A stretch of 64,000 nucleotides of DNA from Nitrospinaceae bacterium (lineage in GTDB: Bacteria; Nitrospinota; Nitrospinia; Nitrospinales; VA-1): positions 1-64,000 of the forward strand of contig JBHHVU010000011.1 of the NCBI GenBank assembly GCA_046754465.1, read 5' to 3'. The number at the start of each line of letters is the position of its first letter. The stretch's first letter is position 1. Position numbers: made by a program. Below are positions 9,001-12,000 of this stretch, piece by piece.

Positions 9001-12000
9001 ACCGAATTCATCGATAAGACGATCCAGGAACACCAGGCGACCCGGCTCGTCCGTGACGGGTCCCCGAAACCTCAAATTTCACAGGACGCGTAACCGGGGT
9101 TCGGCCTCTTCCCAGAACTGGGCGGAGGTCATCGACCCGATCGAATCGCGGCGGTAAATTTTCCCCTCCACCGAATACTCCTCCACCCCAGCATCCCCGT
9201 GCGTCACGACGGGGACATCTCCGTGCCGGGTCTTTTCGAATCCGTTAAACAAGGCCGCCGCCGTGGCGGGAGAAAGATCCAGCGAAAAACGGCGGGCGGC
9301 CCGCTTTTCCCGGCCGGGATCGTGCAAGTCCACACAAAGATGATTTCCTGCCACCCAACACGCTATGGTGTCCTCCTCCGATTTTCCGGGCACAAACACT
9401 TTCTGGTCCACACGGACCGCGTATTCCGGACTGAAGGAGCCCGGAATCCACACTTTTCCCGTATCTTCGATTTTGGGCATGATTCCGGTTAAAAACGTGA
9501 GCCGATTTTTGACTTGAAAAGGCTTTTATAACATAATTTAGGAAACGATATGGATCCTGTCCCAGAGGACCACACAAATTCTTGACCGAACCTTTTAACG
9601 ATCGCCTGCAGAATGAACTGACCCGCCGCCGCCGGGAAAAGCTCCTCCGTGAAATCTCGGTTTTTAGTGATTGCCGGTTGAACCTGTCGAGCAACGACTA
9701 TTTTCAACTGAGATTTCATCCGCAAGTGGTTGCCGCCGCCAACAGGGCCGCCGAAGCGTATGGCGCGGGAAGCGGCGCGTCGCCGTTGCTTTCGGGATTC
9801 CTTCCCTGCCACGACCAGCTCCTCCGACAGTTGATGGAATGGAAACAAAAACCCGCCGGAATGCTTTTCAATACGGGGTTCCTGGCCAACCAAGCGGTGA
9901 TGAAACATTTACCGGGCAAAAAAGACCTCGTTCTCGCCGACCGGCTTGCCCATCATTCCATCCTGCAAGGACTGACCGCCGGAACGGCCCGCTTCAAACG
10001 TTATAACCATCTCGACCTGGATCACCTGGAAGAACTTCTGGCCAAAAACCAGGGCCGTTACGAATCCGTGTTTGTAGTGACCGAGACGGTGTTCAGCATG
10101 GACGGCGACTACCCGGACCTCAAAAAACTGGTGGCGTTGAAGGAAAAATTTCTCTTTATCCTCATTCTGGATGAAGCGCATGGGACCGGCGTTTTCGGGC
10201 CGACGGGTGGGGGATTGGCGGAGGAAATGGGAGTTCTGGAAAGGGTGGATATCCTGGTAGGAACCTTGGGGAAGGCCCTCGCTAGTATGGGCGCGTATGT
10301 TTTGACACGCTCCCCGTTGATCGTGGAATACCTGATCAACACCGCGGGAGAATTCATCTATTCCACGTTTTTGTCACCCAGCCAAGCGGGGGCGGCATCC
10401 GCCGCGTTAAAAATTCTGCGGCAGGCTCACGATAAACGCCGTTTCCTCCACGCCCTTTCCAAGACTTTGCGTCAGGGGTTGCGGGAATCTGGCTGGTCCA
10501 CCAACACGTTCGACACCCCCATCGTTCCCGTCATCGTGGGAGACGCTGATAAGGCCCTCGAACTGCGCGGCCGGCTGCTGGAGCGGGGCATCCTGACCGG
10601 GGCCGTCCGCCCACCGACGGTGCCGCCGGGAAGTTCCAGGCTGCGTATTTCCTTACACTTGGATTTGACAGAGGAATCCCTGCAAGATCTTCTTGGAGTC
10701 CTGGGGACGTGCAAAAGGTGATGAGAATTACTGCGGTGTGCGGCTGGGCCATTCCCCCAGAATGGTTTAGTGGCCTGGTGGAACAGTATTTCCCGCAAGC
10801 GAATGTGAAAACGCTCTACCCTGCCCTGCCCCACAGCCGCCGCCAGGCGGAAAGTCTATTGAATGACTCCGAATCGGAACTTTATATCGGTTATTCCCTG
10901 GGAAGCTTGTGGCTGCTGACTCATCAGGCCTATTTGCCCCGAAACTCCATCCTGGCACTCATCGCCCCGGTTCTGGCCTTTTCCCGCGAACGGAACCTGG
11001 GGGGCAAAACTCCTGAAACCAAATTAAAATACCTGATAAGAAGCTTGAAAAGAAATCCGGTGGACCGGACACCCCTCTTGAACTTTTACGCGGACAGTGG
11101 GTTGTCTCTTTCCGAATCGGATTTACGAGGCCTGCCCGACCTCCGAGCCCTGATTCAGGGGCTGGAATTTTTGAAATCCGCCCCAGCCCCGGAAAAAATC
11201 AGCGAAAAAATTACCGCCCTTGTCGGAGGTCAAGATATCTTTTTGGATGGAAATCAATTGAAACACCATATTCCGCAGCTGGAAATCATTCCCGGCGCGG
11301 GCCATGCCCCGGCCCCGCTCCTGGCACACCTGGCCGGAAAATTCCATTCCCCGGGACCCGGAAAAGCCTCTGCCGATCCGGATTCCTGTCCAAAGATCAT
11401 TGCATAACCCATTCTCTTTGCCTATACAATGATGAATGAAACTCAAGGAGCGTCCTGGAAGCCCTGCCTGGAATGATCCCAATGACCAAGGCCCAGTCCA
11501 TTTATACCGAATCCAGAATCATTGACAGCTTTTCCAGACATGCGAAAAGCTATGACCGGCATGCGCATCTGCAAAAGACCATGGCCGAGAGGCTGGCATC
11601 ATTACTGCCGGACGTTTTGCCTGACCGCGTTCTAGAAATCGGCTGCGGGACCGGAGTCTTTACCCGGCACCTTCTGGCGCATCCCATCCGGTGGCTCGTG
11701 CTCAACGATATCGCACCAGCCATGACCGATCTTTTGCGGGAAAGGGTGACCCTTCCCCCATCCGCCAGAATCGTCCATGGCAACGCCGGACGCATGGATT
11801 TTGAGTCCGCCGGCCTCATCGCGGCCAATGCCGTTTTTCAATGGTTCCCCCACCCCGGCGACACGCTGTGTCATTTGGCGCGATTTCTGGCTCCCGGCGG
11901 CCGTCTGATCTTCAGCACGTTCGGACCCGGAACGCTCCAGGAATTCCGCGAAACCGCTCAACTCCAGAGTCCCGCCACCCTGCTCTCTAGAAAACAATGG

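Follow-up and report, generated by a model that had tools for sequence, protein, structure and literature searches.

Esterases of the BioH step

It is well established that biotin synthesis proceeds by way of a methyl group that is added by BioC and later removed. The esterases described for the removal, the BioH step, are diverse and comprise BioH, BioG, BioK, BioJ, BioV and BtsA (PMC4751477, PMC7026016, PMC5438404). As this diversity (at least six esterase types) is well known, one more clade would amount to the filling of a testable gap rather than a surprise to specialists. BioH of E. coli (PDB 1m33, 4etw; model TIGR01738, cut-off 206.95 bits) is described as binding ACP through Arg138, Arg142, Arg155 and Arg159 of its four-helix lid (PMC6733898). 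BioK, from cyanobacteria, was compared here by description only; its gene is reported in the same operon slot, overlapping bioF and bioC (PMC3494674). BioV, a compact esterase with a catalytic triad (NF033854, 167 model positions), has been reported as restricted to Helicobacter (PMC4751477). BioJ and BtsA are about 300 residues long and genus-restricted, and BioJ possesses a split lid and an N-terminal cap.

A compact hydrolase gene between bioF and bioC

The window analysed here is a stretch of 64,000 nucleotides from a Nitrospinaceae bacterium (contig JBHHVU010000011.1, assembly GCA_046754465.1). Its forward strand carries at 10721..11407 a genuine open reading frame, gene X, for a compact alpha/beta-hydrolase of 228 aa that we predict to be a pimeloyl-ACP methyl ester esterase. 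Immediately upstream lies bioF (9582..10721, forward strand; best NCBIfam match TIGR00858), encoding an 8-amino-7-oxononanoate synthase of 379 aa that would use the product of X. Downstream lies bioC (11473..12243, forward strand; best NCBIfam match TIGR02072), encoding a malonyl-ACP O-methyltransferase of 256 aa; the methyl group that it adds is the one X would remove. The ATG of X overlaps the bioF stop codon (TGA, 10719-10721) by one base and 65 bases separate its own stop from the start of bioC, an arrangement that bears out the position between the two genes given in the genome-wide survey's note. An in-frame GTG at 10709 would lengthen X by four residues (to 232 aa); most relatives have an N-terminus that matches this extension, so the gene may in fact begin at the GTG.

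Both neighbours scored below their curated cut-offs: against a cut-off of 426 bits BioF reached 388.7, and against one of 185 BioC reached 159, with the next family at 54 bits. The window's bioF is the orthologue of the bioF found in complete Opitutia bio operons. Genes for bioA, bioB and bioD exceed their cut-offs and reside on other contigs of the same genome (97% complete), where X is present in a single copy, as had been claimed. No BioW, no BioG and no BioH-level match (best 20.5 bits) was found in this genome, in which the controls matched; other hydrolases are present.

Just upstream of the biotin genes, at 5960-8580, the window contains genes for a chorismate-binding (PabB/TrpE-like) protein and a class IV aminotransferase (PabC-like); both also occur in loci L035, L037 and L038 and mark a conserved vitamin-gene neighbourhood. 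A 133-aa open reading frame on the reverse strand (9079-9480) runs divergently from bioF, and no family matches it better than E 0.1. A promoter-like site at 9509-9537 was discarded as being at chance level (2 found against 1.7 expected). Directly 3' of bioC lies a gene for an MptE-like/Maf-type protein (12319-14205), which likewise follows bioC in L036-L038.

Predicted fold and catalytic residues

Neither Pfam nor NCBIfam (TIGR01738 included) gave a match to the X protein at E up to 1; searches of PDB by sequence and by profile yielded matches at chance level, the profile searches returning no hydrolase better than E 0.065. The survey's observation that there is no family match therefore stands for X itself; among 59 close relatives, however, seven weakly match Pfam Abhydrolase_6. 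One relative carries the JGI label 'pimeloyl-ACP methyl ester carboxylesterase', which we take to be the generic COG0596 name. The NCBI names of relatives at 50-57% identity agree with an assignment of the genome to Nitrospinales.

Conservation was assessed in a close alignment of 59 of the 120 close relatives listed, and in a wide alignment of 111 rows comprising X and 110 near-full-length proteins among 150 listed representatives (225 matches in all). G8, W9, G57, S59, G61, D172 and H195 are invariant in the close alignment. Two residues of the motifs previously called invariant fall slightly short, with Y58 present in 56 of 59 relatives and L60 in 58 of 59. At the wider range of 25-46% identity, S59, G61, P83, D172 and H195 are found in 111 of 111 rows.

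 Gly8-Trp9 (10742..10747, forward strand), present in all 108 rows with a residue there, aligns with Gly21-Trp22 of BioH and by analogy would form the oxyanion-hole loop. Ser59 (10895..10897, forward strand), the predicted nucleophile, corresponds to BioH Ser82 and sits between a strand (54-58) and a helix (60-67). Asp172 (11234..11236, forward strand) and His195 (11303..11305, forward strand), the predicted acid and base of the triad, correspond to BioH Asp207 and His235.

In a structure model of X (pLDDT 91.8, pTM 0.86) the core has six strands, Ser59 sits at the elbow between a strand and a helix, and the lid is small and helical; at approximately residues 210-228 there is an unconserved tail of low model confidence. 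X is an alpha/beta-hydrolase by its fold and nucleophile elbow (in the model) and by its Ser-Asp-His order (in the alignment). Foldseek returned at least 500 matches at E <= 0.001, those listed being hydrolase folds throughout. BioH provided the top fold match and occupied ranks 1, 2, 4 and 7 (best E 8.9e-10, TM 0.66, 20% identity), with type II thioesterases ranked between and below the BioH structures. BioJ was not among the listed matches; X, at 228 aa, begins at the first core strand. A wide structural search gave BioH and the unrelated esterase EaEST the same Z score of 19.2, and BioG 14.8. A shared fold by itself shows no function.

In common with BioH, X has a co-linear GW loop and Ser-Asp-His triad, a slot before bioC and lid motifs that align. 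It differs in being about 40-50 residues shorter, the segment after the GW loop being among the parts shortened. Alignment of the X family profile with E. coli BioH was co-linear over 186 columns but weak (probability 40%); in this weak alignment the lid helix bearing Arg155 and Arg159 of BioH is largely deleted, and no conserved K/R occupies the columns of Arg138 and Arg142. Basic residues of X lie instead on its first lid helix (residues 99-111; 11015..11053, forward strand), where K103, R107, K110 and R111, together with K96, make up a basic face. Position 107 is K/R in every one of the 59 close relatives and in 89% of the 111, and the other four positions (96, 103, 110 and 111) are so in 57-76%. 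We regard this face as a candidate ACP-docking surface.

Distribution and operon context

Of the 102 genomes from the order Nitrospinales, 82 contain a strong match to X, as do 49 of the 51 good ones, related genomes in this and the following counts not being independent observations; the 18 genomes of other orders in the phylum gave none. The claim that X occurs in all Nitrospinales is thus slightly overstated, and its range was also drawn too narrowly, the gene being found in Opitutia as well. Five genomes without X were checked, both good ones included. Each is also without bioC and without a bioF orthologue, its BioF-type proteins being only 30-34% paralogues, which means that the whole locus is absent from these genomes.

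We examined 35 loci of the order, namely the 30 best matches and five picked from other families. bioF lies directly upstream of X in all 35. The gene directly 3' is bioC in 14 and a DUF429-like/GAF/histidine-kinase gene in 19, with a 1 kb gap and a contig end accounting for one locus each; bioC follows beyond the kinase gene in the three loci with long flanks. This sensor kinase (L036:2365-5079, L037:3521-5806 and L038:3291-5552; a further 16 loci show its beginning) is 750-900 aa long and combines a DUF429-like N-terminal domain with GAF, sometimes PAS, HisKA and HATPase domains. The fusion of a predicted-nuclease-type domain to a histidine kinase within a biotin operon is odd.

Of 19 named X loci, 17 come from Verrucomicrobiota, mostly Opitutia, and Cerasicoccus arenae possesses the order bioA-bioB-bioD-bioF-X-bioC. 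bioF is upstream of X in 18 of the 19; wherever the locus is long enough to tell (16 cases), bioC lies downstream. A further set of 18 Verrucomicrobiota loci has bioF directly upstream in 17. A Planctomycetota MAG carries an X family gene with bioC and without bioF upstream (L043:4995-6319).

Of the 150 representatives listed, six are fusions: three have the arrangement X-BioC, two BioF-X and one BioD-BioF-X. The last may be an assembly product, since a long segment of it recurs unchanged in one of the BioF-X forms. The family profile detected no longer fused forms among 8000 candidates, which is weak evidence. BioD and BioF are themselves fused in one open reading frame (617-630 aa) at L055:3100-4953 and L056:2977-4869; L055, labelled Sphaerochaetaceae, may be a mis-binned contig, given how closely its genes resemble those of Ca. 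Spyradosoma (L056). No relatives of X were found in viral contigs; of two plasmid searches, one gave a single weak match and the other none.

Other esterases of the step are distributed in a complementary manner. Full-length BioH-like genes (>100 bits) occur in 13 of the 18 phylum genomes outside the order, as against none of the 102 inside it, and 12 of the 14 fetched from other Nitrospinota orders adjoin bioC. BioG (PF04301) was detected in none of 120 genomes of the phylum and BioW in none of the 102 of the order. Plausible BioH genes beside bioC also score below the TIGR01738 cut-off. Among 401 Verrucomicrobiota genomes sampled, the X profile matched strongly in 19 and weakly in 58; the 77 genomes with a match and the 75 with BioG do not overlap. 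In the genomes searched, X and BioH-like genes are therefore mutually exclusive in the phylum, as are X and BioG in Verrucomicrobiota.

Possible horizontal transfer of bioF and X

The BioF proteins of these loci, 113 in number and drawn from two phyla and one Bacillus, were placed in a FastTree phylogeny. There the BioF of the order and that of Opitutia form sister groups (0.992), with the BioF of BioG operons adjacent, and BioF of the order stands apart from that of other Nitrospinota orders. The window's BioF has a mean identity of 45% to the Opitutia set against 36% to other orders of its own phylum. The tree and these identities suggest that bioF and X were exchanged horizontally between Opitutia and Nitrospinales. 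The direction would be into Nitrospinales, because diversity is wider in Verrucomicrobiota. A BioC tree did not resolve the donor.

Relationship of X to BioH-like esterases and BioG

Closest to X in sequence are short, BioH-like esterases encoded in operons of other Verrucomicrobiota; they share the bioF/bioC context and, unlike X, keep BioH-recognisable C-terminal motifs. Of the 58 weak Verrucomicrobiota matches 40 were fetched; 38 adjoin bioF or bioC, and BioH is the best NCBIfam family of 39 (41-118 bits; TIGR01738 cut-off 207). On the X profile they score 30-63 bits, against 153-225 for members. A profile of short BioH-like esterases (39 rows, after removal of one that had a long insertion) aligned with the X family at a probability of 99.75% and E 2.9e-27, a value inflated because the set had been chosen by similarity to that family. 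More telling is that the X profile selects biotin-operon genes, one weak match per genome, among all hydrolases of the 401 genomes. Such short esterases beside bioF or bioC (L061-L100) are widespread in Verrucomicrobiota and would also go unnamed; those of L062, L081 and L093 read as fusions with BioF or BioC.

Comparison sets were then chosen by other models (HMM). The X profile scored 96 against BioH-like proteins (16 rows), 59-65 against other hydrolases (17 rows, two short ones dropped) and 48-54 against BioG (25 rows), the lowest of the groups compared, while the BioG profile scored 85-96 against the same BioH set. X and BioG are thus equally distinct from BioH, yet X is closer to BioH than to BioG. 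The X clade itself is monophyletic and fully supported (100*), with a long stem (length 1.17). In both trees it falls amid the short BioH-like proteins, a placement that lacks starred support (SH-aLRT 80-94).

These placements bear on whether the same function was reached by another line of descent. X could be a sister of BioG (DUF452, PF04301; PDB 5gng), or of BioV or BioK, with an ancestor common to one operon lineage, rather than an offshoot of BioH-like proteins. X and BioG are similar in size, share a slot and BioC fusions, and have related BioF proteins, those of X operons grouping with those of BioG operons (FastTree support 1.0). By Atlas features, no named bio family is nearer to X than the BioG clusters (0.96), and an AU test did not reject X and BioG as one clade (p 0.34). 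Weak matches to BioV occur in eight of the 111 members (best E 5.6e-4) and to BioH in seven (best E 1.4e-4); the BioV matches amount to about 15-16 bits where shown (cut-off 150), and the window's X has none. Nevertheless we consider a BioG sister group unlikely. BioG proteins score below unrelated hydrolases on the X profile and have a median of -1 bit on a profile made from Nitrospinales only, and the structural Z score is lower for BioG than for BioH. PF04301 matches in none of 59 and none of 115 X relatives scanned, and the X model keeps flanking helices where BioG is described as having loops (PMC6733898). Scans of BioF alignments for neighbouring esterases or BioK were uninformative, the 115 loci yielding a hydrolase in two, both BioH-like, and no BioK.

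Less likely again is that X was recruited independently from an unrelated alpha/beta-hydrolase lineage and is a wholly new family. Its long-stemmed clade goes undetected by any library model, its distance from BioH equals that of BioG, and a BioH-like clade without X and BioG was not rejected either (AU test, p 0.068). An unrelated origin sits poorly, however, with the biotin-operon context and BioH affinity of the weak matches, with the position of X among BioH-like proteins in both trees and with the co-linear alignment to E. coli BioH.

Since X passes the test of none of the BioH, BioG and BioV models, it was filed as a separate compact clade, of about 200-220 aa and common to Nitrospinales and Opitutia. 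The reading we prefer is that this clade works like BioH and, with reasonable probability, descended from BioH-like proteins. On this reading X is a shrunken, strongly diverged BioH relative, and hence a variation on a known task, not a new kind of enzyme. Of the new family proposed in the survey's note, the distinct clade that no library model detects is retained; its closest identifiable relatives are nonetheless BioH-like esterases, which largely confirms the note's own caveat that X may be a very divergent BioH. Our literature search, whose scope left subscription papers, curated subsystems and supplements to one side, returned no description of the gene or family.

A bolder version of this history is a serious contender that we put forward tentatively. 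X would be an unnamed biotin esterase family meriting a name of its own, as BioG does, with ACP docking moved to the first lid helix; a Nitrospinales ancestor would have taken bioF-X(-bioC) from Opitutia-like Verrucomicrobia and lost the phylum's own bioF/bioH. If so, the short BioH-like proteins would be living intermediates, and some 'non-orthologous' biotin esterases would be eroded BioH.

Proposed function of X

In the proposed pathway, BioC would methylate malonyl-ACP and fatty-acid synthesis would lengthen the product to pimeloyl-ACP methyl ester. X, with ACP putatively docked on its basic first lid helix, would hydrolyse the methyl ester by means of a Ser59-His195-Asp172 triad, giving pimeloyl-ACP for BioF; BioF, BioA, BioD and BioB would then complete biotin. 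The slot, overlap and BioC fusion of X are those described for bioH, bioG and bioK (PMC3494674). In the window's genome X is linked to bioC and bioF, and the BioH, BioG and BioW models find no other esterase or BioW. Fold, triad, operon slot, fusions and mutually exclusive distribution are the reasons why X very probably cleaves pimeloyl-ACP methyl ester. The earlier prediction that X fills the BioH step is accordingly well supported by the triad, the BioH-like fold, the slot in two phyla, the fusions and the complementary distribution, and we are confident in X as the esterase for pimeloyl-ACP methyl ester in a compact clade, likely derived from short BioH-like esterases. Points against are that BioH merely ties with EaEST structurally, that X itself matches no BioH model, that in the weak alignment the ACP-binding lid arginines of BioH are largely without conserved counterparts, that a kinase gene rather than bioC comes next in 19 of the 35 loci, and that BioF and BioC lie under their curated cut-offs.

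That X has some other job, such as that of a type II thioesterase freeing pimelate from ACP or clearing mis-elongated chains, with a housekeeping esterase doing the BioH step, is very improbable: the type II thioesterases RedJ and RifR do come just below BioH in Foldseek, the genome does have other hydrolases, and in one study a promiscuous esterase could reportedly complement delta-bioH, but X occupies the exact slot of bioH, bioG and bioK, fuses to BioC as BioG does, was never met together with BioG or with a full BioH-like gene in any genome searched, and is accompanied by no BioW found that might re-activate free pimelate.

As the esterase of the BioH step, X would close an apparent gap in the biotin synthesis of the ocean's main nitrite oxidisers and of many Opitutia, whose X-bearing genomes would be scored by pathway reconstructions as being without the step. 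The finding supplies a model that annotation can use at once, as well as a simple test. Axenic Nitrospina gracilis is reported to release dethiobiotin, which a heterotroph consumed, and cyanocobalamin is the sole vitamin named in the passages concerned (PMC11428151). Dethiobiotin release under these circumstances indicates that the genus probably synthesises its own pimelate moiety.

Two unnamed clusters resemble X in the Atlas. One, of 229 aa and cyanobacterial, has a score of 0.95 to X and is possibly, at a guess, BioK. The other (Atlas result for P0281, row 5), a hydrolase cluster of 213 aa that is most frequent in Fibrobacterota, comes closest to X in structure among clusters outside the X family (TM 0.82) and may be another unnamed biotin esterase.
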